A DNA stretch of 64,000 nt from Phyllobates terribilis. Its lineage: Eukaryota. Positions 3,766 through 33,115 of this stretch are shown one piece after another. The position numbers and the translations under genes were made by a program. Position 1 is the stretch's first letter, and every line of letters begins with the position of its first letter. The stretch lies in assembly GCF_046119375.1 (NCBI RefSeq), contig NW_027362761.1, positions 425,878,001-425,942,000 on the forward strand, read 5' to 3'. Under the pieces are notes generated by a model. It was not told the DNA's origin. It saw nothing but the letters and a program-made list of their open reading frames with translations, and made no database searches.

Positions 3766-4376
3766 TGTTACACAAGGTGAGGGAAAGACTAAGTGCACAA
3801 CGACGGGAAGAGGGGTAGGAAGCCCAAACCCTAGGGAAAGGGGGATTGGAGATCCCTAGGCAGATCTGACAGTCACCCTGACTCCCCTAACATCCCTAAA
3901 TAGGCTCTGCACCTATCACCAAGCAGGAAACCTAATTCCTGACTGCCCCTAGCGATAGGCCCTAGGTAGGGAGGGGACTGGATGAGCACTAGTCAGTCCT
4001 CACTGCAACTAAAGACAAACAGGTAAACAGACAAGGGAAACACTTAGCTTGAGAAGACACCAGAGAGATCATGCCAACTATCCTCCAAGTGAACTCCAAG
4101 AAGACACAAGCCGACTACAAGGACTTCAAGCCTGAACAGAGGAAAATAGAGCTATTACCGGCGACTCTCTGGAGAGACTGAAGGTATTTAAACATCCAGC
4201 AAGGGTGTGTCAATTAGCAGCAGAAGGTGGAGGTCACTGCTAGGTCCTAGAGGGAGAAAGATAACACTACACTACAGAGATGAAAAGGTCAAGAAGGTGC
4301 TTGCAGAGCCAAGCGCAATGGCCTTCTACAGCTGGATCCAGAACGACTGTCTGTCACACCTGACACACCCGTGACA
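3766..4376 (-). mobile_element. Probable solo LTR of a second Gypsy family, opposite orientation
   Basis: TGTTAC...GTGACA termini, LTR-like size (~610 bp) and composition; no matching TSD (left ACAC, right ACTC); orientation is tentative. Confidence 0.55.
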
Positions 4377-5429
4377 ACTCCTGGAACACACTATTAGCAG
4401 AAAGAATTTAGATTCTGAAATATGGACTCCTGGCTGGAACACACAATTAGAACAAACAATTTAGATGCTGGAAGGTCGATTTGACATAGGATCCTATCTA
4501 TCTGAACTAGCTGACTAGAGATGAGCGTTGTTCTACTCGAACTGTTCGCCAATCTCAAATTCGAGCTGTTTTGGGCGGTGTTCGAGCCGTTCGGCGAACA
4601 CGAACAATTTGAGAAAAATTCGGCAGTTCGAGGTTATGTTCGATAACTGTTCGTGCACCAAAATCATAACTGGATTTTTTCTCAGTAATGATGAAAATTA
4701 ATGTTAATACGCAGTTTGAGTGTACAGCGGGGTGGGGGGAGGGGCAGGGGATGGATCTCTGCAGGAACAATGAAGATCTCCATTTTTTTTTCTCTTTCCC
4801 GCATTTGCAGTGGGGAGGTGCAATCTGTCAGCCTATCAGCAGCGCACACACGGAGCGAAGTGCTTTTTTTCACACAAGCAAGGGCATGTGTCATTGGCAG
4901 TGTATGTCACATGTCCTTGCCCTATAAGACCAAGCCATTTTCCCCGTCGCCACCATATTCTCACTGCTGCAGCTGCGTGTTAGACGGCACCGCTGTTGCT
5001 GTGTGCGCTATACCTTGTTAATTTCAAGCCAATTTTCGCACAAATGTACAGATAGCTTGGGAGTAGGGAATAGTTGTGATTGCAGTCCTTTTAAGGACTA
5101 GGTTACAGCATTTCCTACGACTTTTATCAGGCAGGTCTGTGCTCTTAAATAGATAGATTGTGGGAGTAAAGACTAATTGTAATTGGAGTCCTTTTCAGGA
5201 CTAGGTTACATCAGTTCCTATCAGTTTTTGCCAGGCAGGTCTGTGCCAGTGCTGTGCAAGTTTTTTTCACAGCATTTGGCTGAATCTAGCAAAGCTAATC
5301 CTTTTTGGCCTATTGCAGAGTGTGTTAGTCAGTGGAGTAGCCTATCTGTGTTGCAAGATATACCACCTGTGTATAGAATACCAATTTTTTTACTGCACCC
5401 AGTGAAGTAAAATCTTTTGGGCATAGCAT

Positions 5430-6795
5430 CATTCTATTAGTCCATCTATACTGACCTCCATCAGGTTGCAAATTGAATATAATTTTTTTCTGCATCTAGC
5501 TCTGAAAAAATATTGGGCTTCTAGCTGTGTGTGGGACTTGTTCTATTAATCCATCTATACAGACCTCCATCAGGTTGCAAACTGAATATATTTTTTTCTG
5601 CATCTACATCTGAAAAAATATTGGGCTTCTAGCTGTGTGTGGGACTTGTTCTATTAATCCATCTATACAGACCTCCATCAGATTGCAAACTGAATATATT
5701 TTTTTCTGCATCTACCTCTGAAAAAATATTGGGCTTCTAGCTGTGTGTGGGACTTGTTCTATTAATCCATCTATACAGACCTCCATCAGGTTGCAAACTG
5801 AATATATTTTTTTCTGCATCTACCTCTGAAAAAATATTGGGCTTCTAGCTGTGTGTGGGACTTGTTGTATTAGTCCATCTATACTGACCTCCATCAGGTT
5901 GCAAACTGAATATATTTTTTTCTGCATATACCTCTGAAAAAATATTGGGCTTCTAGCTGTGTGTGGGACTTGTTGTATTAGTCCATCTATACTGACCTCC
6001 ATCAGGTTGCAAACTGAATATATTTTTTTCTGCATCTACCTCTGAAAAAATATTGGGCTTCTAGCTGTGTGTGGGACTTGTTCTATTAATCCATCTATAC
6101 AGACCTCCATCAGGTTGCAAACTGAATATATTTTTTTCTGCATCTACCTCTGAAAAAATATTGGGCTTCTAGCTGTGTGTGGGACTTGTTCTATTAATCC
6201 ATCTATACAGACCTACATCAGGTTGCAAACTGAATATATTTTTTCTGCATCTACCTCTGAAAAAATATTGGGCTTCTAGCTGTGTGTGGGACTTGTTGTA
6301 TTAGTCCATCTATACTGACCTCCATCAGGTTGCAAACTGAATATATTTTTTTCTGCATCTACCTCTGAAAAAATATTGGGCTTCTAGCTGTGTGTCGGAC
6401 TTGTTGTATTAGTCCATCTATACTGACCTCCATCAGGTTGCAAACTGAATATATTTTTTTCTGCATCTACCTCTGAAAAAATATTGGGCTTCTAGCTGTG
6501 TGTGGGACTTGTTCTATTAATCTATCTATACAGACCTCCATCAGGTTGCAAACTGAATATATTTTTTTCTGCATCTACCTCTGAAAAAATATTGGGCTTC
6601 TAGCTGTGTGTGGGACTTGTTGTATTAGTCCATCTATACTGACCTCCATCAGGTTGCAAACTGAATATATTTTTTTCTGCATCTACCTCTGAAAAAATAT
6701 TGGGCTTCTAGCTGTGTGTGGGACTTGTTCTATTAATCCATCTATACAGACCTCCATCAGGTTGCAAATTGAATATAATTTTTTTCTGCATCTAA
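5430..6795 (+). repeat. 108-bp tandem array (~13 copies) inside the hAT 5' arm, ending ~120 bp upstream of the transposase ATG
   Basis: CCATCTATA (TCTATCTATA variant in one copy) recurs every ~108 bp from 5442 to 6738; two variant unit types. Confidence 0.97.
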
Positions 6796-6914
6796 CCCAG
6801 CCTAATACCAGTTTTGGCCTAATACCACAGTTTGGCCACTCAGCTCTGCTCAGTTCCCATCCATTGTTTTTTTGTGCAAACAACTCCAGAGTTGTGAATT
6901 AGTTAACCACCAAA

Positions 6915-9900
6915 ATGAGTGGAAAAAGGCCTGCTGCTGGTGGAAAGGGGAATAGGCGTGTTGGGAAGGGGAAAAAAGGTTGTGTCCGTGGGGTAGGTGT
7001 TAAAGCAACAGTAACATCTGCAGAAGAAAGACCATCTTCCAGCCAAACTAAAATGTCTACTTCTTTTAGCGGACAATGTAATAAGATCCCTTTCTTACGG
7101 CCACGCCAATCGCTACAAATTCCAGATGAGGCACAAAAACAGCAGGTGCTTCAACGGATATCAAGTGCTCCTTTAAGTGGGCTCTCCTCCACATCAACTT
7201 CAACATCACAAATACTCCAGTCCTCAAAGGTGTCACCCCAATCGCACTTGCTTCCTCACAGCTCCCAAATCTCCAGCTGCCCGTCTGAGTATGAGGTAGA
7301 ACAGATGGATGAGTCTGCAGAGCTGTTTACTCATACTATAGCCTGGGAATCAGAGGTCGACTCCAGCGCTTCTGTGAATCCAGACGAGGAAATGATCTGC
7401 ACTGATGCCCAGAATCTTTATGAGTCGGATCCAGGACCAGACGCAGAAGGTTCTGACCATAATGTAGACCCTCATTCCCAAATTGTAACTCCTGTTGGTG
7501 GAGACAATGAGGAAGACGATGATAAGACTCAAATACCTGATTGGAGCGACAACTTTAGTTTTTTGTCAGGGCAGGAACAGGTTGGCTCTGAGGACGACGG
7601 GTGTGATAACGCACAGGGTGATGATGATGAGGTTGGAGATCCCACTTACTGTCAACCCACAGTCAGCCAAGAGATGAGGTCAGCAGAGGAGGTGGAGGAA
7701 GATGCTAGTGACGACGAGGTCAGGTTGCGCCTTCCTGGACAGAGACGTAGTACTGGAAGCACGTCAATAACTGCATCCTCAAACACAACTCTGCCTCTCA
7801 CCACAAGTCGTGGTGGCTCTTCAGGTCGCATGGGTGCTAAGCCTTGCATAGCCTGGGCATTTTTTCAGATCGATAAAGATGACCCAACTCGTGTTATCTG
7901 TAACATTTGTCAGCAAAAGCTAAGTAGAGGCCAAAAAATACATAGTTTGAGTACTTCATGCATGAACCGGCACATGGACATGAAGCATAAGTTGCAGTGG
8001 GAAGCTCAGTGTGCTACAATGCGGCCTAGCCGGCCGGGCCAACCACCGTCTGCCATATCTTGTGCATCCGCGGCCTCTTCATCCTCTGTGACTGGGGGGA
8101 CAGCAGTCACACCTGTTTTGGGGCGCAGACCTGCCACCTCTTTACCCGCAACAGCCAGCGTGATTGGCAGGTCATCATTTTCTTTGGAGGTGGTAACACC
8201 AGCTGGTGTTGAGCGCTGTCCGACATCGATAGCACCACCTTTGGATCAAGGCAACCTAACATGTCCGCCTGCATCTTCCTCACAGACCGGCAGTTTGCCG
8301 GGGACACCCTTATCAACCCCGTCTAAGCACAATAGCCAGCCCTCGGTCCCTCAGATGTGGACAAGTAAAAGACCATTTCCTCCTAGCCATGAGAAAGCTA
8401 AGAGGTTGAATTTCACCATCTGCAAGTTCTTGGCTACAGAAATGCTGCCTTTCCGCCTGGTGGACACAGAGGATTTTCGAGACCTTATGTCCGTCGCAGT
8501 GCCCCAGTACCAGATGCCCAGTCGGCACTACTTCTCAAAGAAAGGTGTGCCTGCGCTCCACCAGCATGTCGCACACAACATCACCGCTTCTTTGAGAAAC
8601 TCTGTGTGTGACAGGGTGCATTTCACCACAGACACTTGGACGAGTAGGCATGGACAGGGGCGTTACATGTCGCTGACTGGGCACTGGGTAACTATGGTGA
8701 CAGCAGGACAAGGGGCTGCTGTCCAAGTCTTGCCGTCCCCACGAGTTGAGCGTCAATCCTCTTTATCTCAAAGTTCCTCCACTGCTTCTGCCTCCTCAAC
8801 CTCCTCTCGGTCCTCCACCTGCACCCAAAGCCTGTCTGGTCATGCCACAAGCTTTCTAACTGCACAGAAGGGATCCTGCACACCTCCTTACTATGCTGGC
8901 AGTAGGGCTCAACGTCATCAGGCGGTTTTTACATTGAAATGTCTGGGAAATGTGAGTGACACAGCTGAGGAGTTGTGGTCAGCTCTGGAGAACCAATTTC
9001 ATGAATGGTTGTCTCCACTGGACCTGAAACCAGGGAAGGCCGTGTGCGACAATGCTGCAAACCTGGGTGCGGCCCTTCGCCGGGGCAATGTCACACACGT
9101 GCCTTGTATGGCTCACGTGTTGAACCTGGTTGTCCAGCAATTTTTAGCCCACTATCCCAGACTAGATGGCCTTCTGCAGAGGGCACGGTCGCTGTGTGCT
9201 CACTTCCGCCATTCGCATCCCGCAGCTCAGCGACTTACATCTCTACAGAAGTCGTTGGGCCTGCCACTTCACCGGCTAAAATGCGATGTGCCTACCCGGT
9301 GGAATTCAACTCTGCACATGTTGCAGCGATTGTGGCAGCACCGACAAGCCCTGGTGCAATACGTTCTGACGTATAGCCTGGGCCAACGAGATTCAGAGGT
9401 GGGGAAAATCACGCTGGAGGAGTGGTCTCAGATCAGGGACCTATGCACCCTTCTGCACAGTTTTGAAATGGCGACGAAGATGTTTAGTGCTGACGATGCC
9501 ATTATCAGCATGACTATTCCGGTGATTTACATGCTGGAGCACATGTTAAACAGAATTCGGAGTCAGGTGGTGGCACAAGAGGAGGTGGAGGAAGTAGAGG
9601 AGGAGGAGTTGTATGCGGAAGGGCTAACATCTGCAAGGTCCAGACGGTCAGCAGCACCAAGGCGGCAGGCATGTGAGGGTGGGGGAGATGGTTTTACCAG
9701 GGCGCATGGTAGCAGCCAAACTAGTGAGGAAGGTGCAGGAGCCCAGGAAGAAGTGGAGGACGAACTGATGGAAGACTCATCAGATGAGGGAGACCTTGAT
9801 CACATTTCTGTTGTGCGAGGTTGGGGGGAGAGGACAGAGGAAGGAAGCATGATTGTTACCTCGCCACCAACACAACAGGGACTTGGTGCTCCTGGATGCG

Positions 9901-10616
9901 TAACACACATGAGTGCCTTCTTGCTGCACTACCTGCAACATGACCCTCGAATTGTGAGAATTAGAAATAATCCTAACTACTGGGTTGCCACACTGTTAGA
10001 TCCCCGGTACAAAAGTAAATTTGCAGAAATTATTCCTGCCATAGAAAGGGATGCACGCATGCAGGAGTATCAGCAGAGACTGTTGCAGAATCTTACATGT
10101 GCTTTTCCACAAAATACCAGTGGTGCACGTAGTGAATCTCACAGTTCCAACTTGCCAACCGTGGGACCGTCAAGTGTTCAGCACTCAAACCGTAACAGAA
10201 CCACAGTATCTGCTGGTAACATCAATTTTGCGGAATCATTTCACCACTTTTTTAGCCCATCCTTTGCAAGGCCACAGGAGACAAGAAGTCTGACACATAG
10301 TCAACGCCTAGAGACGATGGTACAGGAGTATCTCCAAGTAAACATTGAAGCCACGACTGTGTCACTGGACCCTTGCTCTTTTTGGGCTTCCAATCTGGAT
10401 AAATGGCCGGAGCTAGCCACTTACGCCTTGGAGATCTTGTCATGCCCCGCAGCCAGCGTTCTGTCTGAACGTGTGTTCAGCGCTGCTGGTGGTGTACTGA
10501 CAGATAAGCGCACGCGGCTCTCCACTGATAATGTAGACAGACTCACGTTCATAAAGATGAACAAATCATGGATCCGAAATGACTTTTCTACCCCTGTGTC
10601 ATCCTGGGGAGAGTAA
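6915..10616 (+). CDS. hAT transposase, 1233 aa, uninterrupted (BED zinc finger, DDE RNase H-like core, C-terminal dimerisation domain; ZBED1/4/6-like)
   Basis: BED AWAFF...CNIC...HMDMKH; TTDTW (D, 8631), VCDNAAN (D, 9048), CMAHVLNL (CxxH), TRWNST, ATLLDPRYK, SERVFS (E, 10467); single open frame from ATG to TAA. Confidence 0.95.
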   Translation: MSGKRPAAGGKGNRRVGKGKKGCVRGVGVKATVTSAEERPSSSQTKMSTSFSGQCNKIPFLRPRQSLQIPDEAQKQQVLQRISSAPLSGLSSTSTSTSQILQSSKVSPQSHLLPHSSQISSCPSEYEVEQMDESAELFTHTIAWESEVDSSASVNPDEEMICTDAQNLYESDPGPDAEGSDHNVDPHSQIVTPVGGDNEEDDDKTQIPDWSDNFSFLSGQEQVGSEDDGCDNAQGDDDEVGDPTYCQPTVSQEMRSAEEVEEDASDDEVRLRLPGQRRSTGSTSITASSNTTLPLTTSRGGSSGRMGAKPCIAWAFFQIDKDDPTRVICNICQQKLSRGQKIHSLSTSCMNRHMDMKHKLQWEAQCATMRPSRPGQPPSAISCASAASSSSVTGGTAVTPVLGRRPATSLPATASVIGRSSFSLEVVTPAGVERCPTSIAPPLDQGNLTCPPASSSQTGSLPGTPLSTPSKHNSQPSVPQMWTSKRPFPPSHEKAKRLNFTICKFLATEMLPFRLVDTEDFRDLMSVAVPQYQMPSRHYFSKKGVPALHQHVAHNITASLRNSVCDRVHFTTDTWTSRHGQGRYMSLTGHWVTMVTAGQGAAVQVLPSPRVERQSSLSQSSSTASASSTSSRSSTCTQSLSGHATSFLTAQKGSCTPPYYAGSRAQRHQAVFTLKCLGNVSDTAEELWSALENQFHEWLSPLDLKPGKAVCDNAANLGAALRRGNVTHVPCMAHVLNLVVQQFLAHYPRLDGLLQRARSLCAHFRHSHPAAQRLTSLQKSLGLPLHRLKCDVPTRWNSTLHMLQRLWQHRQALVQYVLTYSLGQRDSEVGKITLEEWSQIRDLCTLLHSFEMATKMFSADDAIISMTIPVIYMLEHMLNRIRSQVVAQEEVEEVEEEELYAEGLTSARSRRSAAPRRQACEGGGDGFTRAHGSSQTSEEGAGAQEEVEDELMEDSSDEGDLDHISVVRGWGERTEEGSMIVTSPPTQQGLGAPGCVTHMSAFLLHYLQHDPRIVRIRNNPNYWVATLLDPRYKSKFAEIIPAIERDARMQEYQQRLLQNLTCAFPQNTSGARSESHSSNLPTVGPSSVQHSNRNRTTVSAGNINFAESFHHFFSPSFARPQETRSLTHSQRLETMVQEYLQVNIEATTVSLDPCSFWASNLDKWPELATYALEILSCPAASVLSERVFSAAGGVLTDKRTRLSTDNVDRLTFIKMNKSWIRNDFSTPVSSWGE

Positions 10617-10825
10617 AAGCTTGATGATTGGTTAAAATCACCCTACCAACCGTTTTAAGCTTTCAAATTACTAATCATGTTTATCTGTATCTTGGCTGGA
10701 AAATAATTTGGGCTTGGTAGCAGTTTGCAGCACTGATCCTATTAGGCCATCTATACTAAAGCTTCACCAGATTTAAAATTAATAATAATTTTTAGCTGCA
10801 TCTAGCCCGGAAAATAATTTTGGGG

Positions 10826-10942
10826 CTCCGAGATGCGCAAGACACATAAGTGCCTTCTTGCTGCACTACCTGCAGCATGACCCTCATATTGTCAGAATTC
10901 GAAGTAATCATGACTACTGGGTTGCCACACTCTTAGATCCCC
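10826..10942 (+). pseudogene. Fragment of a second hAT transposase (region equivalent to 9895-10003)
   Basis: LLHYLQHDPHIVRIRSNHDYWVATLLDP; sequence variants match the 29682-30905 copy. Confidence 0.9.
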
Positions 10943-12316
10943 CAAACTTTTCGATCAACCTTTTCATTTTAATAAAGACCAAAAAAATGGTCATTTTTGA
11001 AATTATAAGCATTAGCAGGTTGTTAGAAACTGAAATCAAACAGTTTTCAACTCAAAACTTTATTCTAGGTGATGTTACATTTTCACATAGGACCCCTTGT
11101 TCGAAAGGAGCTTCTGAACTCTCTCGTCCATTGAATTTGTCAGGTTTTGGATGGTTTCTGCTTCAATTGTTTTGCATGAGGACAGAATACCCTCCCAGAG
11201 CTGTTGCTTAGATGTGAACTGCCTCCCGCCATCATAGACACTCCTTTTAATGATGCTCCAAAGGTTCTGAATGGGGTACAGGTCAGGGGAGCATGGGGGT
11301 CACACCATAAGTTTGTCCCCTTTTATGCCCATATCAGCCAGAGATGCAGATGTTTTATGTGCAGCATGAGATGGTGCATTATCATGCAGAAAAATGATCT
11401 TGCTGTGAAATACACGGTTCTTCTTCTTGAACCATGGCAGGAAGTGCTGTTTGAGAAAATCCACATACATTATGGAGTTCATCTTTAGCGCCTTCAGGGA
11501 TCCTAAAGGGGCCGACAATCTCTCTCCCCATGATTCCAGCCCAAAACATTACTCCACCTCCTCCTTGTTGGCGCTGTAGCCGTGTTTGCGTGGGGTGTCC
11601 ATCAACCAGCCATCCTCCACTCCATCCATCTGGACCATCGAGCGCTGCACGTCACTCATCCGTGAACAAAACAGTTTTGAAATCAGTCTTCATGTAATGT
11701 TTGGCCCACTGGAGCCGTTTCTGCTTGTGTGAACTGGATAGAGGAGGTCGACAGGATGGCGTATGCACAGCTGCAAACCTCTGAAGGACCCTGCATCTTG
11801 TTGTTCGGGGGACGTTGGAGGCACAAGCAGCTTCAAAAACTTGTCTGCTGCTATGACAAGGCTTTTTTGCCGCTGCTCTTTCAACCTGACGTAATTGCCT
11901 GTAGGAAAGAGTCCTCAATTTGCCCTTATCAGCACGCACACATGTGTACTGTGAATCAGCTACATACTTCTTGATTGCCAAGACACTTCATCCTGATCAT
12001 CGCACAATGTTGATTGTAGTCATGCCTTGACCTAAACACTCCACAATTTGTTGCTTCTCAGCAGCCGACACATCCTTTTTCTTTCCCATTTTGGCAGAAA
12101 ATGTAGGCTGCTTAATAATGTGAGACAGCCTTCTTAAGTAGTCTTGCCTTTCATTGGACACACCTGCCAAACTAATTAGCACAGGTGTCTGCAATTGCTT
12201 ACAGTGATATAAAGAGCCCTGACACACATCACCATCAATGAGTTTAACTGACAAACAAACAAATTCTTCCCTTATCACTCCTAAACACTTTTTGCATAAT
12301 AATTTGGAACGCAGTG
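10943..12316 (-). mobile_element. Decayed Tc1 (DD34E-type) element nested in the hAT; 5' TIR retained, 3' end deleted
   Basis: TIR CACTGCGTTCCAAATTATTATGCA next to TA at 12317-12318; MGKKKDVSAAEKQQIV (ATG at 12089), VLFTDE and IIFLHDNAPSH in shifted frames. Confidence 0.88.
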
Positions 12317-12386
12317 TACATGTGCTTTTCCACAAAACACCAGTGGTTCACGTAGTGAATCTTACAGTTCTAACTTGCCAACCGTG
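12317..12386 (+). pseudogene. Continuation of the second hAT transposase fragment (equivalent to 10095-10163)
   Basis: TACATGTGCTTTTCCACAAAACACCAGTGG...CCAACCGTGG; the Tc1 is inserted at its TA. Confidence 0.88.
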
Positions 12387-14210
12387 GTCTGTATGGAATT
12401 GTTCAATAAAGGGCCCAAAATTAAGATAACATAGATGGGAGAGGTCTCTATGAATAGGAATTCCTAAGTATTTGATACCCTGTGAGGGCCAGGCAAAGGG
12501 AAAGTTGGACTGGATGGAATCCTATATGGATTTGGGGAGGGAGACATCGAGGGCCTCAGACTTCGCTGCATTGATTTTAAAATTTGACCATGTAACAAAG
12601 TGATCTATTTCAGCCATAACAGCATGGATGGATATATGTGATTGAGTGATATATACTAGGACATCATCAGCAAATAGAGAGCACTTGTACTCGGTGCCTC
12701 CCACCTCAATCCACCTAATATTGGGGTAATGGCGAATTGATGAGAGCAGGTGCTCCGTCACTAGGATGTATAAGAGAGGGGACAGAGGACATCCCCGCCT
12801 TGTCCCATTGGTGATTGTGAAAGGTGATGAAAATGTTCTGATGCACCCCCTGGGCCTTGGGACACCCGGAGCCGGACCCTTTTTGGTGGATGCTGGTGGT
12901 TGTAGTCTTCGTGGCGGCGACCCGGTTCCGTGGCTCAGGGTGGTCAAACCAGTGGCGGAACTATTTATGTGGTTTTGATGTTTAAATGTCCGACTACGCC
13001 ACCCGTGGATTGCGGTCAGAGTGAACCGCCGCTGCAGGGCAGACCGCTGAGGCTGGTGTTGTGGGTGCAGCAGAGCGTAGCATAACTCCCCACGGGAGGA
13101 GTATAGCCTCAGGGCAGTGTATGCGGAGGATGGGGGTGATGGTGCAGGGCAGCAGCAGTAACGACACGGAGTCAGTGATGCAGTCCAGGGCCTTTACTCA
13201 CAGTTCTTATTATCCAGACCACGTCTGCAGGTAACGGCTGCCCACGTCGTACTGTGCTCACCAGGTGAGGGGCTCAGACAACTCCCAGATAACTTTGGAG
13301 CGCTTCACAGGACCCCCTTTGTGTGTCCTTTGTCTGGCCTTTCTTACCAACCCTTCTGTCCGGCTGCCTCGGGCCTCCTTTTGGTAAACTTGGCGCCAGT
13401 TTCCCTGACCCTATGTGGTGCCTTCCTAGCGGGTGTAGCGAGGGGCTGCGCCACATAAAATGTCACAGCCTCCGGTTTCTAGCTGAGGGTCGTTTCCTGC
13501 CTCCACTAGTTTCGGGGACCGGTCTCCCCCTTTGGCCTGACCCCTCCACGCAGGTGGATTCGGGCGTGCAGTGGCGACTCGCCTGTCCGCACCCCTGGGA
13601 TCCCTTTATTCCTCGTTCCTGGAGCCTTCTCCGCTCCTCTTCCTTCCTTCTCCCTCTTCCAGGCCTGGGCCTCTGTTACTAGGCCCGCCTCCGGAGCAGA
13701 GCTCATGCAGAGCCCCTGCTCCCTGCCACTTCTGCTCAGACTTCTCTGCACTGAACTAAGATGGTGCTCACCTTTTATACTCCCTTCTCAATGAACCCAG
13801 GAACTGCTTCCTCCCTGCTCCTGCACTACAGGGTTCCCCTTTCTCAGTGTTCCCTCCCCCCACTCCAGCCAGGGACAGGGACTGTCGTGCCCATCTCAGA
13901 GGCATATTGGTCGCCCTGCCCCACGGCAATGTGGTGTAATGCATGCAGGTGTCAGGTCCTGATCCACACTCCATCCTTACCTGAGAGTGAGATATCACAC
14001 CTCTGGGTGAGGTGCAATACCTCTGTAGCAACCGAGCCCTCAGGGTGCTACAGTTCCATTTATCTTCAGCCTAGGTGACGTATTGTGATACAGGGCCGTG
14101 ATTTTGGCTATAAAAGGGTCCCCTAGACCCCCACCCCAAGCTTTTTAAGAGAATCATATATGGCGTGCCAGGAGACTCTATGGAATGCTTTCTCAGCATC
14201 CAACGAGAGT
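12387..14210 (-). mobile_element. L1/Tx1-clade LINE reverse transcriptase fragment, split by a solo LTR
   Basis: SLDAEKAFHRVSW (14170-14205); KINGT|FSSPFTITNGTRRGCPLSPLLY rejoins across the LTR; SLFADDVL motif. Confidence 0.9.
12839..14052 (-). mobile_element. Solo LTR (1214 bp) with 4-bp TSD GTTC
   Basis: TG...CA termini, GTTC on both sides, removal restores the L1 frame; minus-strand TATAAAA at 13773-13779 and AGTAAA at 13193-13198 suggest the orientation. Confidence 0.88.
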
Positions 14211-14316
14211 ATCTAATTACAAATTTTTAACTGCATCTAGCCCAGGAAATACTTTGTGCCTAGTAGCAGTGTCTGCTAGTCAGCGGATTATCCCGGCTGT
14301 TATGCAAGCTACACCA

Positions 14317-14587
14317 CCTGTAGTTTAGACACTTAATTTTTTCAAAGGAAATGCTTCGGGACCATGGGATACTCAGTGAAGAGCATCAGGAGGCACCCCA
14401 AGGCATAGGGGCTGGGACTGGCAGTAGGATGCCTTGCGGTGGACAGCCGAGCTCGATCCTTATAAAAGCTTTTTAACTGCAGCAGCTTTAGTGGACGCTA
14501 CTGGAGCTGGAATTACGCGGCTGCTGGCATGAGACTTGCCCTCCAATAGATCCTTGTAAATGGTTTAAAAGTGTATTCATTCAAATT
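14317..14587 (-). pseudogene. 18S rRNA-derived fragment (~270 bp, helix 18/530-loop into V4) embedded in the hAT 3' arm
   Basis: Reverse complement reads GGATCTATTGGAGGGCAAGTCTCATGCCAGCAGCCGCGTAATTCCAGCTCC...GCTGCAGTTAAAAAGC...GATGCTCTTCACTGAGT...CCCGAAGCATTTCCTTTGAAAAAATT, collinear with vertebrate 18S. Confidence 0.92.
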
Positions 14588-15432
14588 AGAGAGACAATTT
14601 AAATTAAAAAGCTTAGAGCTGCCTCCACCACAGGGGGGCTCGCTCGACCCACCAGCGGACAGGCACCAGTATTGGGAGAGGGGGGCTGGTCATCAGGGTT
14701 CACCGCGGCTCTGGCACAAACCCGGCGACACGGAGGTGGCACGGGCAGGAGCGGACTGGCCGTGTCGGCTTCTCACTTTTTGGATTTTAGAAGGGCATGA
14801 CATGCCTATATCTGTGTCTCCCCCTCCTTTTACTCCTCCACCTCTTTTATTTTCGCATGACTATATGTACTTGTCACTTTTCCATGTGTTAGTTATGTCT
14901 TCTGAGCAGTTTGTCAGCTTTTGGACACCTTTGAAGGTGTTTTCTATGTGTTTCTATGTGTTTTTGTTTGCCTGCCATTGGTTTTAACGGTGTTCGAAGG
15001 TGTTCGACGAACAGTTCAGCGAACACACGGGTGTTCGACAAACCGAACCGAACTCGAACACTACGGGGGTGGCTCAACACTATAGCTGACAATAAACTGC
15101 CTAGCTAACTGTCTGGCTACTTGCTGCAGCAGGAGCAGCCTCTCTGTGCTGTTACACTAACAAAATGGTGCCAAAAGAACATGTCCACTTTTTAGATGGA
15201 GAGGGACAAGTGACTTCGGCCGCCAATGACACAAGCCCTTGTGTCTGGACATTGTGGATGGTTTCTGCGCCCTGATTTGCTGCCGGAATCACCACACATT
15301 AAGTTAATAAAAAAAAATAAATAATAAGTCTTCCCCTCCTCTGTCCTCTCCCCACTCCATCCTCTCATCAAACATGTCACCCCCTCACATCATATAGCAC
15401 CACTATCCTAGCCAAAGTCCTAACAAAAGCAT

Positions 15433-15580
15433 TAGTGGAAACTCGATCATTTACCGAACTTTGGCCGATTTGTGCCGATTTTGAGGAAAATGCTCAGGAA
15501 TCCGAATACGAATTCGAACGTGCAATGTTCATGCTGATTTTGAGATTGGCGAACATTTTCCAAAGAAGTTTGCTCATCTA
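15433..15580. mobile_element. Short degenerate remnant of a TAGAGATGAGC-type non-autonomous hAT
   Basis: CGAA/TTCG-rich sequence ending TTGCTCATCTA; no TSD confirmed. Confidence 0.45.
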
Positions 15581-15619
15581 TAGATGTGAATTCTCATATC
15601 TCAATGTATTGTTTCAATC

Positions 15620-16330
15620 TGTGTTTTTAAGATACAGATCAGTTAGTCGTTTTGTTACTTTAAATATATACCCGTGTGTCCAAAAATTGTAGACTATCAC
15701 ATTTTGTGGTAAATTGTAGTTAAGGAAATATTCCATTAAAACAATCAAGGAATACCCCAAATTCATGTGTGAGAAGAGGCTGGATGAGTGTACCATAATC
15801 TTCCTCAAACTGGGCCATAAATATGTCTGCACATGTAGGGACCACATTAGACCCAATTGCAGTTCCCCTACATTGTATACAGAATTTCTCTTTAAATAGA
15901 AAGCAATTACAGCTCAGTATGAATTTTAAAGATTATAAAATGAATTGTTCCTGGTCAATATCCAAATGAGAGTATTGCAAAGTTCTACTCACTACCTCCA
16001 AGCCTCTCATGGTCAATACTGGTAGAAAGATTACAAATGTCAAAGGACGCCAACAATTGCCACTCCAAAAAGTCTAAACTCCTGAAGCTTAAGGTCAAAA
16101 TAAGTGCTATCCCTGACATAAGATCATGTTTTAATAGCATTATAATGTCAATATCTTGTCTAAAAAAATATTACCTGGGATGAATCCCGGAAACAATTTG
16201 ACATCTAGGGGGATTTCTTAGATATTTATGTATCTTGGGCAAAATATACAGTTTCTGTAGTTGTCCACTTACTGTACTTGTTCATTCAATCTTGACCATT
16301 TCTGGATACTAACTACGTTTTTTAATTGGT
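15620..16330 (-). mobile_element. Penelope-like retroelement RT fragment, decayed
   Basis: LYILPKIHKYLRNPPRCQIVSG, SYVRDS, LLASFDICNLSTSID and GTAIGSNVVPTCADIFMAQFEED in shifted frames. Confidence 0.85.
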
Positions 16331-16480
16331 CCACGTATACCTAAATTTTTTTGCCGTTTTCATTGACTTCTATCTGCAAAAACGCGATATTCAGGAGCGT
16401 AATGTCCATTGAGTATTTATTGGAGATTTGTTTAAACGTTATACAGAAATTCTTATAGTTCGGAAAAAATGTAGGTCTTA

Positions 16481-17000
16481 AAGGGAACCTGTCACGTCCT
16501 AGTTACTATATACACTACCCCCATTGCTTTGTTAGTGATGCAGTGTGCATCACTAACAAGCTATTTTCATTAAAATTGGTGGTAGTATAATGATTTTATA
16601 ACATTATATATACTTTGTCCTACCTGCTGTATTCAGTCATAGGGGTGTGATCCTGCTATTCAGTCATGGGCAGCACTGCATTCACTCACTGCTGGTGCCG
16701 CCCATGTATTTGAATACTGCTCCCGGCAAGGTTGTGTCTAGATCGGTCGGAGTTGATTTCTTGAGGCCCTCACTCCAGCAACTACAATCTAGTCTCCTCA
16801 GTAGTGAAGCGTCTAGATCAGAGTTGATTTTTTTGTTCTCCTCACTTTAGCCACTCCGATCTAGACGCTTCACTGCTGAGGAGACTAGATTGGAGATGCT
16901 GGAGTGAGGGTCTCAGTAACCCCCTCCGATGTAGACAGTTCAGCACTGACACCACTAGATCGGAGCTGATTCCAGGATCCTCATACTCACTGCTGTCTAG
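16481..17000. mobile_element. Kolobok/T2-type MITE fragment with internal hairpin (arms ~16745-16820 / 16850-16930)
   Basis: TTAA-AGGGAACCTGTCA left end; inverted repeat CTCACTCCAGCA...GAAGCGTCTAGATC; right end not seen. Confidence 0.6.
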
Positions 17001-17968
17001 TTGCCTCTACCGGCTTTTTAAAGATTTTCTTATGCTTTTTTTATGCAATTGCTCATGTTTTTAATGGAGCAAACATCACAAGTCAAAAATGATTTTTTTA
17101 GATTGTTATATAATTTATGTATTTTTATACTGTTATATATTTTATGGATTTGGGCAAAATTCTTTTTTTTCCTGATTAATGAAACTTACATTTTTATTGT
17201 CGCTTTATGTAACATAAAAAATTCCCCTGATCGCTGATTGTTCAGTTTTGCCAGAATGTGACTCTTCCCATTTGTCCACAGTCCTGTCCGCAGCACCGAC
17301 ATTGTGAAGAGTGGGCGGAGCTCTGCGGGCAGAGGCGTAAAAGAGCGCCCCCGACAGTCACCATAATGTACAACACAGAAGTGACAAATTATTACAGGAA
17401 TGTCTAAGGTCACTGGAGAACACTGCTGGTAATATATACATATATACAGGCATGTCCAGGGTCACTGGAGAACACTGCTGTTATCATTTCTGCCACTTTT
17501 GTGCTGTACATTCTGATGCTTCTGTCGTCTGCGCACCGTCACTGGCTGAGACTTGTGGACTTACAGGAAAATTTGAATTCTATCAAAACTGAACAATCAG
17601 AGCTATGTGTAATTTTTAATATTACAGAAAGAGATAATAAAAAAACTCACTTTATTAATTAAAAAATTTTTTTCACAAAGTGTCCGAGCTTTCTCCCTCT
17701 CACCCTTCATTAAAGGGGATATCCGTTCCACTCGTTCAGCTGCCTCTGCTGACGTTGCATCGACAGAGCGGAGGCTTCTTTTCCGCTCCATTGTGTTGAC
17801 AGGGCGAGACTGACAACGTCATTCTGACTGACAGCTGGATTCCCACTGTTATTCCCATTTTCCCACTGACCTCATATCAATTCATCTTTTGGTTTACATA
17901 AAAAAGTCTTGACAGATGTGGCCCCATCTAAAATACGTGCAATGTCCTCATAAGAAGAGGTAAATGTA

Positions 17969-19568
17969 CAGTGGGGAAAATAAGCATTTGGTACACTGCC
18001 GATTTTGCACGTTTTCTCACCTACAAAGAATGGAGAGGTCTGTAATTTTTATCGTAGGTACAGTTCAACTGTGAGAGACAGAATCTAAAAATAAAAAAAA
18101 CAGAAAATCACATTGTATGATTTTTAAATAATTAAATAGCATTTTATTGCATGAAATAAATATTTGATCACCTACCAACCAGCAAGAATTCCGTCTCTCA
18201 CAGACCTGTTAGTTTTTCTTTAAGAAGCCCTCCTACTCTGCACTTTCTGCCTGTATTAATTACACCTGTTTGAACTCATTACCAGTATATAAGACACCTG
18301 TCCACACACTCAACCAATCAATCACACTCTAATCTCTCCAAAGACTAAAGCGCTGTCTAAGGACAACAGGGACAAAATTGTAGACTTGCACAAGGCTGGG
18401 ATGGGGTACAGGACAATAGGCAAGCAGCTTGGTGAGAAGGCAACAACTGTTGGCACAGTTATTAGAAAATTGAAAAAGCACAAGATGACTGTCAATCTTC
18501 CTCGGTCTGGGGCTCCATGCAAGGTCTCGCCTCATGGGGTAAGGATGATTCTGAGAAAAGTCAGGAATCAGCACAGAACTACATGGGAGGATCTGGTCAA
18601 TGACCTGTAGAAATCTACGACAACTATCTCAAACACACTACGCCATCATGAATTAAAATCCTGCAGGGCATTCAAGGTCCCCCTACTCATGCCAGCACAT
18701 GTCCAGGCCCTTTTGAAGTTCGCCAATGACCATCTGGATGATCCAGAGGAGGCATGGGAGAAGATTATTTGGTCAGATGAAACCAAAATAGAACTTTTTG
18801 GTATCAACTCCACTCACTGTATTTGGAGAAAGAAGAAGGATGAGTACAACCCTAAGAACACAGTCCCAAATGTGAAGCATGGTGGGGGAAACATCATAGT
18901 TTGGGGGTGGTTTTCTGGAAAGGGAACAGGACGACTACACCGCATTGAAGGGAGGATGGATGGGGTCATGTATTGCGGGATTTTGGCCAACAACTTCCTT
19001 GCCTCAGCAAGAGCACTGAAGATGGGTCGTGGCTGGGTCTTCCAGCATGACAATGACACAAAAGACACAGCCAGGGCAACTAAGGAGTGGCTCTGTAAGA
19101 AGCATTTCAAGGTCCTGGAGTGGCCTAGCCAGTCTCCAGACCTGAACCCAATAGCAAATCTTTGAAGGGAGCTTAAACTCAATGTTGCCCAGAGACAGCA
19201 TCGAAACCTGAAAGATGTGGAGAAGATCTGTATGGAGGAGTGGGCCAAAATCCCTGCTACAGTGTGTATGCAAGCTTGGTCAAGAACTACATGAAACGTC
19301 TGACCTCTGCAATTGCAAACAAAGGTTTCTTTACCAAATATTAAGTTATTAAGTTCTGTTTTTCTATTGTATCAAATACTTATTCATGCAATAAAATGCT
19401 AATTAATTATGTAAAAATCATACAATGTGATTTTCTGGATTTTTTTCTTAAGATTCTGTCTCTCACAGTTGAAATGTACCTACGATAAAAATTATAGACC
19501 TCTCCATTCTTTGTAGGTGGGAAAACTTGCAAAATCAGCAGTGTATCAAATATTTATTTTCTCCACTG
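17969..19568 (+). mobile_element. Full-length Tc1 element, Passport-like (DD34E), defective
   Basis: TA flanks, ~200-bp TIRs starting CAGTGGGGAAAATAAG; transposase ~18337-19345 ([37 protein letters not shown]) with stops at 18608 and 19163. Confidence 0.93.
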
Positions 19569-19742
19569 TATGCGATAGACTCATTTGTGATATACTTATT
19601 GCAGGTTCCATGTCGTCTATGGGTACACATCTTCAGGTCATGAATGGAGTAAGACAAAAAAGCAGCACCGCATAATCCCATCCACATGACAGAAGCCAGG
19701 CAAAGATCCAAAATGGTGAGTGCACGCAATGTCAAGTTAAAA

Positions 19743-25403: not shown

Positions 25404-27073
25404 CAACCCCTGGCAAAAATTATGGAATCACCGGGCTCGGAGGATGTTCATTCAGTTATTTAATGTTGAAAAAAGCAGATCACAGACATGGCACAAAACT
25501 AAAGTAATTTCAAATGGCAACTTTATGGCTTTAAGAAACACAAAGAAATCAAGATAAAAAATGTGGTACTCAGTAAGGGTAATTTTTTTCAGACCAAGCA
25601 GAGGGAAAAAATTATGGAATCAAATGGAATCATGAAAAACAAACACACAAAAGAACACTCCAATACATCACTAGTATTTTGTTGCACCACCTCTGGCTTT
25701 AATAACAGCTTGCAGTCTCTGAGGCATGGACTTAATGAGTGACAAACAGTACTCTTCATCAATCTGGCTCCAACTTTCTCTGATTGCTGTTGCCAGATCA
25801 GCTTTGCAGGTTAGAGCCTGGTCATGGACTATTTTCTTCAACTTCCACCAAAGATTTTCAATTGGATTGAGATTCGGACTGTTTGCAGGCCATGACATTG
25901 ACCTTATGTGTCTTCTTTCAAGGAATGTTTTCACAGTTTTTGCTCTATGGCAGGATGCATTATCATCTTGAAAAATGATGTCATCATCCCCAAACATCCT
26001 TTCAATTGATGGGATAAGAAAACTGTCCAAAATATCAATGTAAACTTGGGTATTTATTAAAGATGTAATGACAGCCATCTCCCCAGTGCCTTTACCTGAC
26101 ATGCAACCCCATATCATCAATGACTGTAGAAATTTGCATGTTCTCTTCATACAGTCATCTTTATAAATCTCATTGGAATGGCACCAAACAAAAGTTCCAG
26201 CATCATCACCTTGCCCAATGCAGATTCGCAATTCATCACTGAATATGACTTTCATCCAGTCATCCACAGTCCACGATTGCGTTTCCTTAGCCCATTGTAA
26301 CCTTGTTTTTTTTCGTTTAGGTGTTAATAATGGCTTTTGTTTAGCTTTTCTGTATGTACATCCCATTTCCTTTAGGCGGTTTCTTACAGTTCGGTCACAG
26401 ACATTGACTCCAGTTTCCTCCCATTCGTTCCTCATTAGTTTTGTTGTGCATTTCCAGTTTTGGAGACATATTGCTTTAAGTTTCCGGTCTTGATGCTTTG
26501 ATGTCATCCTTGGTCTACCAGTATGTTTGCCTTTAACAACCTTCCCATGTTGTTTGTATTTGGTCCAGATTTTAGACACAGCTGACTGTTAACAACCAAC
26601 ATCTTTTGCAACATTGCGTGATGATTTACCTTCTTTTAAGAGTTTGATAATCCTCTCCTTTGTTTCAATTGACATCTCTCGATTTGGAGCCATGATTCAG
26701 GTCAGTGCACTTGGTGCAACAGCTCTCCTTGGTGTGATCACTCCTTTTTAGATGATGCAGACTAACGAGCAGATCTAATTTGATGCAGGTGTTAGTTTTG
26801 GAAATGAAAATTTACAGGGTGATTCCATAATTTTTTCCTCAGAATTGAGTGATTCCATAATTTTTTCCCTCTGCTTGGTCTGAAAAAATTACCCTTACAG
26901 AGTACCACATTTTTTATCTTGATTTCTTTTAGCGTTTTTTAAAGCCCTAAAGTTGCCATTTAAAATGACTTTAGTTTTGTGCCATGTCTGTGATCTGCTT
27001 TTTTTCAACAATATTAAACAACTGAATGAACATCTTCCAAGCCCAGTGATTCCATAATTTTTGCCAGGGGTTG
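25404..27073 (-). mobile_element. Near-intact Tc1 (DD34E) with long IR/DR-type TIRs
   Basis: TIR CAACCCCTGGCAAAAATTATGGAATCAC with internal TTATGGAATCA direct repeats; left flank TA, right flank CA; 1670 bp. Confidence 0.95.
25671..26693 (-). pseudogene. Tc1 transposase, 340 codons, single in-frame TAA at codon 35 (26589-26591)
   Basis: MAPNREMSIETKERIIKLLKEGKSSRNVAKDVGC*QSAVSKIW...GRPR...IFSDE...QDDN(34 aa)IENLW...ARGGATKY. Confidence 0.93.
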
Positions 27074-27792
27074 CAATGTCACTGGTGATCCCTGTATTAC
27101 CTGTAAACTGACACTATAGACTATATACTATGTACAGAGCTCCTGTGTATAATATCACTGGCGTTCACGGTATTACCTGTACACTATACACAGAGCTCCT
27201 GTGTATAATATCACTAGTGTTCACGGTATTACCTGTACACTATACACAGAGCTCCTGTGTATAATATCACTAGTGTTCACGGTATTACCTGTACACTATA
27301 CACAGAGCTCCTGTGTATAATATCACTAGTGTTCACGGTATTACCTGTACACTATACACAGAGCTCCTGTGTATAATATCACTAGTGTTCACGGTATTAC
27401 CTGTACACTATACACAGAGCTCCTGTGTATAATATCACTAGTGTTCACGGTATTACCTGTACACTATACACAGAGCTCCTGTGTATAATATCACTAGTGT
27501 TCACGGTATTACCTGTACACTATACACAGAGCTCCTGTGTATAATATCACTAGTGTTCACGGTATTACCTGTACACTTTACACAGAGCTCCTGTGTATAA
27601 TATCACTAGTGTTCACGGTATTACCTGTACACTATACACAGAGCTCCTGTGCATATCACTAGTGTTCACGGTATTACCTGTACACTATACACAGAGCTCC
27701 TGTGCATAATATCACTTGTGTTCACGGTATTACCTGTACACTATACACAGAGCTCCTGTGCATAATATCACTAGTGTTCATGGTATTACCTG
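27074..27792 (+). repeat. 56-bp minisatellite, ~12 copies
   Basis: CAGAGCTCC every 56 bp from 27135 to 27748 (one 53-bp unit); a degenerate unit lies left of the Tc1 at 25345-25403. Confidence 0.96.
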
Positions 27793-28109
27793 TAGTGTTG
27801 AGCCACCCCCATAGTGTTCGGGTTTGGTTCGTCGAACACAGGTATATTCGCCGAACTCTTCATCTAATGATTCGTCGAACACCGTTAAAACCAATGGCAG
27901 GTAAACAAAAATACATAGAAAACACATAGAAAGCACCTTCAAAAGGTGTCCAAAAGCTGAGAAACTGCTCAGAAGACACAACTAACACATGGAAAAGTGA
28001 CAAGTACATATAGTCATTCGAAAAGAAAAGAGGTGGGAGGAGTAAAAGGAGGAGGAGACACAGATATAGGCATGTGATGCCCTTCTAAAATCAAGAAAGG
28101 CTGCAGTAA

Positions 28110-28640
28110 AAATCTAAAATCAGCCTACCAACACCCAGACGTCGTGACAAGAAAATTAAAAAAAATAAATATCTTTAGGTAGAGTGGCGGTTCCATTCAG
28201 AACACTTTCCTTACAAGACATAGTGGTATCCCCGTTGGGAGTCGTGCCAAAAACGTAACCCAATACATTCTGACTAATCCACCATTTGTCATATCCAAGG
28301 GACAGGTCAGTAAACGACAACATAGACGTGGAACCAAGTACAGTAGTATATACTGTATATCCTTTGACAAGGCAATCAGGCGGCTCAAGAAGTTGGGAAG
28401 GGGCACACTAATGGGCAAAACAAACATTGAGTGGGTGTTCCGGTTACTTACTACCTGTGCCTCCGAATAGTGTCCGCCTATTGGGCTGCTTCTGGGAAGG
28501 AGCATAGATCCTGCTCACTATTTGAGGCGTTTAGTTGCTTCCTCGAATGGGTCGTCATGGACGTTTCTAAGGGGGCACATATCAATTACCTTGACGACTT
28601 CTTATGCCTGGGCCCAAAAGATTCACCACAATGTGAATAC
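28110..28640 (+). mobile_element. DIRS/Ngaro-type (tyrosine-recombinase retrotransposon) RT fragment inside the hAT 3' arm
   Basis: NLKSAYQHPDVV, LGRVAVPF, VVSPLGVVPK, LIHHLSYP..SVND, FDKAIRRLKKLGRGTLMGK and INYLDDFL, with frameshifts. Confidence 0.8.
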
Positions 28641-29018
28641 ATGTGGTAGTCCACCTGTGAGAAGGAGAGAGCTGGAGGGACAGCGGACACCACAGAGCCG
28701 AGGGGTTAGATGGAGAACGAAAGAAGGAAAGAGGGCGAGGGAGGTAAGGGAGTACGGTGGAAGGCCGACCTGAGCTCCCCCACGTCCCTGCTGGACGGGG
28801 AACAGCCCTGGGAAGAAAAGCCGCTTGCGCATTCCTTTGAGGTTACGGGCGCGAGCGGGCAGAGGGACTACGCTGGAGTACGAAGCAGACACGGCCAGGC
28901 CGTTCCTGCCCGTGCGACCTCTGCGTCGCCGGGTTTGTGCCAGAGCCGCGGTGGACTCTGACGGCCAGCCCCCCTCTCCAAATACTGGTGCCTGTCCGCT
29001 GGTGGGTCGAAATGAGTA

Positions 29019-29288
29019 TTGAATGAGTACACTTTAAATCCTTTTACAAGGATCTATTGGAGGGCAAGTCTGGTGCCAGCAGCCGTGGTAATTCCAGATC
29101 CAGTAGCGTCCACTAAAGCTGCTACAGTTAAAAAGCTTTTATAAGGATCGAGCTTGGCGGTCCGCCACAAGGCATGCTACCACCAGTCCCAGCCCCCTTG
29201 CCTTGGGGCGCCTCCCCGATGCTCTTCACTGAGTGTCCCGGGGGCCCGAAGCGTTTCCTTTGGAAAAATTAAGTGTCCAAACCACAGG
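29019..29288 (+). pseudogene. 18S rRNA-derived fragment in hAT copy 2
   Basis: GAATGAGTACACTTTAAATCC...GGAGGGCAAGTCTGGTGCCAGCAGCCGTGGTAATTCCAG...GATGCTCTTCACTGAGTGTCCCGGGGGCCCGAAGCGTTT. Confidence 0.93.
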
Positions 29289-29681
29289 TGGTGTAGCTTG
29301 CTTAACAGCTGGGCTACTCCACTGACTAGCAGACACTGCTACTAGGCCCAAAGTATTGGCTGGGCTAGATGCAGTTAAAAATTATTATTAGATACACATG
29401 CGGTGTAGCTTGCTTCACAGCTGGGCTATTACGCTGACTAGCAGACACTGAAGCTTTGGAGCAGACCTCTGATTCCCAGGCTATAGTATGAGTAAACATC
29501 TCTTCAGACTCAACCATCTGTGTTACCCCAAGGCATAGTCATGTAAAACACAGCAAGGGGACTCCAAAAACAGTCTCCATTTTTTCCAAAAATTGTGGCA
29601 CAGACACCACTTAAGTGGCATCAATTGCCCCAGAGTTGCTTAAAATGGTTGGTAAGGTGATTTTCCAAAATCCTCAAGCTT

Positions 29682-30917
29682 TTAATCTCCCCAGGATGAC
29701 ACAGGGGTAGAAAAGTCCTTGCGGATCCATGATTTGTTCATCTTTATGAACGCGAGTCTGTCTACATTGTCAGTGGACAGCCGCGTGCGCTTATCTGTCA
29801 ACACACCACCAGCAGCGCTGAACACATGTTCAGAGAGAACGCTGGCTGCGGGGCACGACAAGATCTCCAAGGCGTGAGTGGTGAGCTCAGGCCATTTTTC
29901 CAGATTGGAAGCCCAAAATGAGCAAGGGTCCAGTGACACAGTCATGGCTTCGATGTTCACTTGGAGATACTCCTGTACCATCCTCTCTAGGCATTGACTA
30001 TGTGTCAGACTTCTTGTCTCCTGTGGCCTTGCAAAGGATGGTCTGAAAAATTGGTGAAACAATTCCACAAAATTGCTGTTACCAGCAGATACGGTGTTAT
30101 TGTTACGGTTTGAGTGATGAAGACTCGACAGTCCCACGGTTGGCAAGTTAGAACTGTGAGATTCACTACATGCACCACTGGTGTTTTGTGGAAAAGCACA
30201 TGTAAGATTTTGTAACAGCCTCTGCTGATACTCCTGCATGCGTGAATCCCTTTCTATGGCAGGAATTATTTCAGCAAATTTACTTTTGTACCGGGGATCT
30301 AAGAGTGTGGCAACCCAGTAGTCGGGATTACTTCGAATTCTGACAATCCGAGGGTCATGTTGCAGGTAGTGCAGCAAGAAGGCACTCATGTGTCTTGCGC
30401 ATCCAGGAGGACTAAGTCCTTGTTGTGTTGGTGGCGAGGTAAGAATCATGCTTCCTTCCTCTGCCCTCTCCCCCCAACCTCGCACAACAGAAATGTGATC
30501 AAGGTCTCCCTCATCTGATGAGTCTTCCATGCCCATCGCCAGTTCGTCCTCCACTTCTTCCTCGGCTCCTGCACCTTCCTCAACAGTTTGGCTGCTACCA
30601 TGCGCCCTGGTTAATCCCTCTCCCCCACCCTCCCATGCCTGCCGCCTTGGTGCTGCCGACCGTCTGGACCTTGGAGACGTTATCCCTTCCGCACACGACT
30701 CCTTCTGTACTTCCTCCCCCTCCTCTTGTCCCACCACCTGACTCCGAATTCTGTTTAAAGTGTGCTCCAGCATGTAAATCACCGGAATAGTTATGCCGAT
30801 AATGGCATCGTCAGCACTAAACATCTTCATTGCCATTTCAAAACTGTGCAGAAGGGTGCATAGGTCCCTGATCTGAGACCACTCCTGCAGCGTGATTTGC
30901 TCCACCTCTGGATCTCG
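29682..30917 (-). pseudogene. hAT transposase C-terminal fragment (~410 aa, open)
   Basis: Closely similar to residues ~825-1233 of the 6915-10616 protein, including ATLLDPRYK and SE.VFS. Confidence 0.93.
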
Positions 30918-32452: not shown

Positions 32453-33115
32453 AAAGAAACCCATCACCAGGATTTACCATATAAAGTAGGGCCAGCACCT
32501 GTACGCCCTCATATACAGCATTCTAGAATGCTGAATACAAGTGCCCAATGTGCACGGCGTAACACAAAAAAGACCTTTGACTATACTCGCCTATGGGGCG
32601 GTCCGGTCCTAATCCGGCGCTTCCTCTCTTCTTTCGATCAGTCCTCCTTCTTGCTTCGTGTGGATAAGGCATCCTACATCATCCACAGTGTCCTCCATCA
32701 CTCTCCTGCGCAGACGTACTTCTCTCGGTCCTGACGAAGGTAGATCAAAGTACTGTAGTGCGCATGCGCGGGGCAAGGACAAAGAGCACTGGCGCAGGCG
32801 CACTACAATTCTGGCAGAGCAGAAACATGTACGCCAGCGCATCAGTGTGATGGAGGACACTGTGTGGATGACAAAGCAAGTAGCACACGAAGCAAGAAGG
32901 AGGACGGTGATTGCAAGAAGGGAGGAGATGACATATCTAAATCAGCAACACCAATCAGACCGGACCAGACCGTGCGTAGGGGAGTATAACAATAGCTGTT
33001 TTTTGTGTTATGCAGAGCGCATTGGGACATACATACAGCATTCTATAATGCTGTGTATGAGGGCGTTCAGGTGCTGGCCCTACTTTATATGGGAAAAACC
33101 TGGTGACAGGTCCCT
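32453..33115. mobile_element. Kolobok/T2-type MITE, largely palindromic
   Basis: TTAA flanks; ends AAAGAAACCCATCACCAGG / CCTGGTGACAGGTCCCT; long internal arms. Confidence 0.8.

Follow-up and report, generated by a model that had tools for sequence, protein, structure and literature searches.

The stretch of DNA analysed here (hereafter the window) comprises 64,000 nucleotides of contig NW_027362761.1 from Phyllobates terribilis and holds, at positions 4516–15082, a composite hAT element of 10,567 bp lying between two copies of TAGCTGAC. Its features, in order along the forward strand, are as follows.

4508–4515, forward: left 8-bp target-site duplication (TSD), TAGCTGAC, abutting the 5' end
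4516–4526, forward: 5' TIR of 11 bp; the sub-terminal stretch behind it is rich in TTCG as far as about 4700
5432–6794, forward: tandem array of 108-bp units, 12.6 copies with 96% matches, upstream of the ORF
6915–10616, forward: hAT transposase ORF, open, 1233 aa, with zf-BED and hAT dimerisation domains
10820–10942, forward: relic of a second hAT ORF, piece 1, equivalent to 9883–10005
10943–12316, reverse: Tc1/mariner passenger, broken, with four in-frame stops, one frameshift and one end missing
12317–12387, forward: relic of the second hAT ORF, piece 2, equivalent to 10094–10164
12388–12838, reverse: L1-type reverse-transcriptase fragment, downstream part (Pfam RVT_1), with one stop
12839–14052, no strand assigned: TG..CA insertion of 1214 bp with a 4-bp TSD (GTTC), splitting the L1-type fragment
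14053–14210, reverse: L1-type reverse-transcriptase fragment, upstream part, with one frameshift
14211–15082, forward: hAT 3' end, with 81–88% identity to the corresponding end of the copy at 27.8–29.4 kb
14284–14647, reverse: 18S rRNA-derived piece (Rfam RF01960, 65.6 bits)
15072–15082, reverse: 3' TIR of 11 bp
15083–15090, forward: right TSD, TAGCTGAC, abutting the 3' end

The two copies of TAGCTGAC sit directly at the element ends, as the original prediction of a perfect TSD had it. The chance of this 8-mer at a fixed position is 1.4e-5; it occurs three times in the window against 1.76 expected, and is therefore informative by position only. The TIR pair (TAGAGATGAGC / TAGTGTTGAGC) is imperfect, with 9 of 11 bases matching, and both sub-termini carry clusters of TTCG (11 in 4516–4700 and 9 in 14950–15082, the window average being 2.4 per kb). 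An 8-bp TSD, TIRs of 11 bp within the 10–25 bp usual for hAT elements, and termini of the YARNG type (TAGAG/TAGTG) all agree with that superfamily as PMC3942097 and PMC3014272 define it, and the ORF has a BED finger, a predicted DDE triad, CxxH and RW motifs and a dimerisation domain. The composite exceeds the typical hAT length of 2.5–5 kb (PMC3942097), to which hobo_AC of Anolis carolinensis is a published exception (PMC3014272). At this one site, the TSD fits two of the four consensus positions of the hobo/Ac target NTRNNYAN, as given in PMC3014272. The target itself (15091–15585, reverse) is a reversed, diverged hAT-like 5' end, which matches the 5' end of the composite at 74% along 47 bp and at 67% along 96 bp, and is moderately repetitive in sequencing run X4 (see below).

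The protein encoded by the ORF matches the Hermes transposase (E 3e-19) but is twice as long, with long low-complexity inserts. All of 13 aligned homologs keep D712, E1185, H734 and W796, and 12 of the 13 keep D573 and C731; C731 and H734 form the conserved motif C731xxH734. The first catalytic Asp falls outside the Hermes alignment; from its conservation and the motif around it we take it to be D573, which gives a predicted catalytic triad of D573/D712/E1185. The claim of a 3.7-kb ORF with its catalytic residues, free of stops and frameshifts, thus holds at the level of sequence prediction. The closest full-length homologs, of which the named ones are anuran BED-hAT proteins annotated as 'ZBED6-like', are 38–46% identical, poison-frog protein fragments reach 71–89%, and the protein collection searched contained no identical transposase; these matches point to a frog as the most likely host.

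The other half of the element is best understood from its junctions, from which the order of assembly is readable. Beyond the stop codon, at 10658–10835, lie two diverged 108-bp units, and diverged units recur near 14222–14342; at about 10820–10825 a 108-bp unit adjoins the relic ORF in what we regard as the chimera junction, with only some 4 bp of shared sequence there. The number of downstream 108-bp units differs among copies (joints 10758–10658 in X4). The first relic piece is 88% identical to the element's own ORF and 93% to a second hAT copy at 30 kb, the second piece 94% and 96%, and in this small sample nine sites group with the second copy and four with the own ORF, which may hint at a chimeric origin. 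The Tc1 was inserted at a TA at 12317, within the relic ORF, and its far end is gone together with about 88 bp of that ORF; its stops, frameshift and lost end bear out the description of it as eroded. The L1 fragment was also correctly recognised (RVT_1 match, split by the TG..CA insertion), and the 1214-bp insertion with its GTTC duplication is, by anatomy, a putative solo LTR. The diverged 18S piece was rightly identified; its listing among the passengers of this element needs amending, in that the second hAT copy also bears one (29010–29103, by Rfam) while having no Tc1, L1 or LTR cargo. The 18S piece is therefore an older family trait that predates the split of the two lineages and stands outside the Tc1/L1/LTR cargo. 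Taken together, the 3' half would be what remains of an older, decayed copy of a sister hAT, attached to a younger ORF.

The second hAT copy (27793–30917, reverse) is 5'-truncated, with an open frame of 411 aa whose DNA identity is 91.7%. A stray bit of the 5' part of the ORF (equivalent to 7292–7376) is fused to its 3' end, it holds an insert of about 780 bp at 28100–28880, and it adjoins a 56-bp tandem array (27127–27794). Elsewhere, the window begins with a broken Ty3/Gypsy pol with integrase and chromodomain (1–2700, forward), behind which comes an LTR-like region containing a 99-bp and a 45-bp array; a further TG..CA stretch, at about 3767–4376, may by eye be a solo LTR. Two more Tc1-like elements (17967–19570 and 25404–27073, the latter with a 305-aa open frame) have inverted repeats of about 200–220 bp (91–92%). 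There are many palindromic MITE-like elements, including 16747–16929, 32453–33117 and 45294–45662, and an exon with a mitochondrial carrier domain (35647–36279, reverse), presumably resembling SLC25A46.

To what extent other copies carry the same cargo can be judged from public sequencing runs compared with positions 6850–16450 of the window. Eight runs labelled as organism A contain 0.84–0.92 of the words of this region and six labelled as organisms B–E contain 0.66, the share that a divergence of about 0.8% across the whole element would give; two runs typed 'RNA?' (X15 and X16) contain 0.62–0.64 and those labelled F and G 0.18–0.19, and no run recorded as RNA is listed as containing the region. 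We do not claim horizontal transfer, as the 0.66 shared by B–E would come equally from close relatives or from frog DNA in the sample of another organism. Four of the 24 runs were aligned at 95% likeness, namely the DNA runs X4 (organism A), X9 (organism B) and X13, the last two among the six B–E runs, and the RNA run X21. A single read among 12.7 million came from X21, whose sample is labelled as another organism, which makes it a poor guide to expression in the host. The exact 24-nt pattern of the 3' end was found at no locus in metagenome contigs or in viral contigs.

In X4, each of the 26 bins covering 6850–15195 has a summed depth of 1.5–2.8 million, and the four flank bins past the 3' TIR then have 10,618, 83, 17 and 17. 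Summed contig depth is not copy number, and the figure of hundreds to thousands of copies is our inference. X9 and X13 yield long single contigs whose depth (299–517 and 42–77, respectively) is alike over ORF and cargo, and the flank of the window copy is absent from the contigs of both. The ratio of cargo to ORF depth is 0.92 in X4, 0.70 in X9 and 0.86 in X13. Counting a junction as bridged when one contig has at least 31 letters on each side, five of the six junctions named in the original prediction are bridged in single contigs (10942 in X13; 12387, 12839, 14052 and 14210 in both X9 and X13), and the sixth, 12317, is spanned by 30 letters.

Minority forms also occur. Some contigs leave the element after 10824 (43 in X4, one in X13) or before 14211 (five contigs), and a deletion form joining 7358 to 14267 (depth 2607) resembles the structure of the second hAT copy. 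In 12 contigs (depth 5504), 12834 is joined to 14053 with exactly 1218 bp missing, representing either free L1 copies or a stage before the LTR arrived. Two letters near-fixed in X9, at 9904 and 11278, are below 1% in X4, hinting at a separate sub-lineage burst.

We favour, with a probability of about 0.8, the reading that the composite is one copy of a frog hAT family, young and high in copy number, in which the dominant form is cargo-laden and likely moves as a single 10.6-kb unit by means of its predicted transposase. The copy in the window descends from that form and has decayed slightly. The proposal that the element moved as a cargo-carrying unit is thereby supported, with the passengers and junctions belonging to the dominant form in all three DNA runs.

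The alternative that survives best is that the composite was mobilised in trans, with the ORF lineage and the cargo-bearing 3' half being for the most part separate high-copy elements that are sometimes joined. The interval 10694–10876, which includes the joint at 10820, is bridged by none of the contigs listed, and the link between ORF and cargo is directly visible in the window alone; the exits at 10824 and 14211, the cargo depth of 0.70–0.92 of ORF depth and a transposase known as a prediction would likewise suit such an arrangement. However, in each of the three DNA runs the bin that contains the ORF–cargo junction matches the adjacent bins in depth, a contig of X13 begins at 10876, already within the relic piece, and ORF and cargo are equally diverged from the dominant form (figures below), all of which makes this alternative unlikely. 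Multiplication by tandem or segmental duplication, in place of transposition, is very improbable. It would draw on the fact that flanks are visible for the window copy only and that the composite contains a tandem array of its own; yet depth stops in the bin containing the 3' TIR, the 15 best-supported joints of 105 include none at 15082, whether head-to-tail or read-through, and the window copy, about 0.7% from the dominant form, nevertheless has its own TSD in an unrelated older repeat.

Relative ages can be assessed from the eight longest pieces per run (the best 8 of 55 and 8 of 87). Among these, the window copy differs from the dominant form of X13 at 17 of 3190 positions in the ORF and 32 of 4025 in the cargo and 3' end (Fisher p 0.20), and from that of X9 at 17 of 3085 and 30 of 3308 (p 0.11), neither contrast being significant; the distance is 0.5–0.9% in ORF and cargo both. 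The Tc1, in turn, is identical to its nearest open relative (P0022, 337 aa) at 290 of 336 aa, or 14% apart at the amino-acid level; this relative may be of another species, and 14% is thus an upper bound on decay. A contig of X9 over 11027–12346 has eight differences and no gaps, and none of the differences touches the stops at 11999, 11990 and 11302; these stops and the frameshift near 11490 are therefore features of the dominant form. Most Tc1 lesions are thus common to both, the stop at 11654 alone being peculiar to the window copy. Since the Tc1 is more decayed than its host copy and its lesions are shared, the passengers were dead before the burst and were amplified with the element. That they are older than the last jump, as had been proposed, agrees with the 290 of 336 aa set beside the 17 of 3190 ORF bases in X13. 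The Tc1 protein at 11490–12089 is 85% identical to a protein of the fish Metynnis hypsauchen, equal to the best unnamed matches, and the passenger is possibly of a horizontally spread Tc1 lineage.

These results leave ordinary later nesting, whereby a lone hAT copy collected the Tc1, L1 and LTR after landing, with scarcely any credibility. The nested anatomy (TA site, GTTC duplication) would fit by itself, and nested insertions are common in coding elements according to PMC3903597. The original prediction had named two outcomes that would speak for it, every other copy lacking the passengers and junctions, and passengers no more diverged than the hAT. Neither was found: the junctions and Tc1 lesions are those of the dominant form in three of three DNA runs, and a distance of 14% (aa) separates the Tc1 from its open relative, against less than 1% for the host copy within its family. 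Moreover, the Tc1 occupies the duplicate relic ORF and not the element's own. The run data refute later nesting unless the high depth is an artefact.

The description of the ORF as pristine does not stand. In the ORF there are 21 differences from the dominant form among the 40 of 71 differences listed, 14 non-synonymous and 7 synonymous, a split not distinguishable from neutral (p 0.20) that fits neutral decay; 18 of the 21 are common to all three DNA runs, and 12 of these change the protein. Codon 682, for example, reads Asp in the window copy and His in 12 of 13 homologs. An open frame at such an age has a likelihood of about 0.44 (no stop after 20 substitutions, with substitutions only counted). 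Against the second hAT copy, dN/dS is 0.46 over 408 codons, as expected for lineages selected while active. That the ORF might be a ZBED-like gene which the host has domesticated and selection maintains open, with old junk alongside, has in its favour the 'ZBED6-like' annotation of homologs and 1233 open codons, and is hardly to be believed given the high copy, the TIRs and TSD, the neutral-like split and an open frame that is unremarkable at this age.

The cargo-laden family that we favour would have arisen in four steps. As the anatomy shows, an older copy of a sister subfamily, with the 18S piece already aboard, received the Tc1 within its ORF and gained the L1 fragment, into which an LTR element landed, and everything then decayed. 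A template switch or recombination near 10820 may have fused a younger 5' end and open ORF to this wreck, so that the 3' TIR of the chimera would have come from the wreck. Depth and divergence show that the chimera was then amplified whole, and the TSD, the TIR-bounded depth and known hAT chemistry suggest that this amplification proceeded by cut-and-paste transposition. Copies of hAT elements are gained by the usual replication-linked or gap-repair routes. We put forward only tentatively, and with some doubt, the further idea that this chimera, cargo included, displaced its lean parent in competition and became the source element of hundreds to thousands of 10.6-kb copies, in a burst that would be ongoing in more than one frog lineage, given the letters at 9904 and 11278 near-fixed in X9, a run labelled as another organism; the 3' end from the older subfamily may itself have driven the element's success. 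If this reading is true, the burst would have turned the dead Tc1, the L1 and 18S pieces and the LTR into false 'young families'. Repeat landscapes of this frog would score the old passenger Tc1, L1 and LTR as young high-copy families, and the 18S piece could yield stray rDNA signals.

Several known systems invite comparison. Passengers have spread on DNA transposons elsewhere: in PMC6887750, MER6 is a mariner MITE carrying a V-SINE piece, and differs in being non-autonomous; in PMC3538342, a likely autonomous, 5.6-kb hAT of Pyrenophora transduplicated H3L, its cargo being a gene. Pokey (PMC10946416) also contains rDNA-derived sequence, in its case repeats from the spacer rather than 18S. Nested insertions usually accompany lower abundance (PMC3903597), and the accessible text of PMC11152451 assigns 3.91% of a poison-frog assembly to hAT, such composites being unmentioned there. 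A literature search that lay mostly outside subscription papers, Repbase/Dfam and supplements found no paper on this frog hAT family.

Pack-type behaviour had been suggested for the element. Animal Pack-TIRs, e.g., Pack-hAT-N8_XT, are described in PMC8277862 as captured stretches of host DNA, short (median 224 bp), not derived from TEs and traceable to a parent, only four being multicopy (three of the four in a frog), and template switching is proposed there for their origin. The composite works like a multicopy Pack-TIR in that foreign DNA between TIRs would be multiplied by repeated transposition, and to that extent the suggestion stands; it fails on the cargo, which is the wreck of a sister hAT and not captured host sequence with a unique parental copy. 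Its sole host-derived component, the 18S piece, is old. Whereas Pack-TIRs of that account have few copies, the composite is high-copy by depth (with a TSD visible at the window copy only), and next to its open transposase ORF lie 3.4 kb of wrecked TEs.

The closest parallel is hobo_AC (PMC3014272). It is an autonomous hAT of 9–15 kb, 1.12% from its consensus, with an 11-bp TIR (TAGGCTTGMTC/TAGGCTTGAGC) that is identical to the 3' TIR of the composite at 9 of 11 positions. It bears older Chapaev, Bov-B, CR1 and SINE fragments without having lost replication, includes chimeras from inter-element recombination, and its cargo is viewed as captured genomic filler, with seven structures among about 25 long copies. 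The likeness, that of a young, large hAT with older TE fragments of both classes in many young copies, is one of architecture and implies no sequence kinship. With so direct a precedent, the composite is not unusual for an autonomous vertebrate hAT, as had been supposed, nor is it unprecedented: it is the same kind of system as hobo_AC, described in 2010. Among vertebrate hATs of autonomous type it is the second example, this one from an amphibian, of good replication at more than 10 kb with dead passengers, and a predicted transposase whose natural load in a vertebrate is 10.6 kb would be a candidate large-cargo vector, a use also proposed for hobo_AC. In contrast to hobo_AC, the composite has its cargo nested in a relic hAT ORF, a single structure seems to predominate, the number of copies seems far greater (by summed depth, not copy count), and an 18S piece and a 108-bp array are added. 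Distinctive here are an order of assembly that can be read, the seeming predominance of a single high-copy cargo-laden structure, the 18S piece and the variant of the dominant form in X9.
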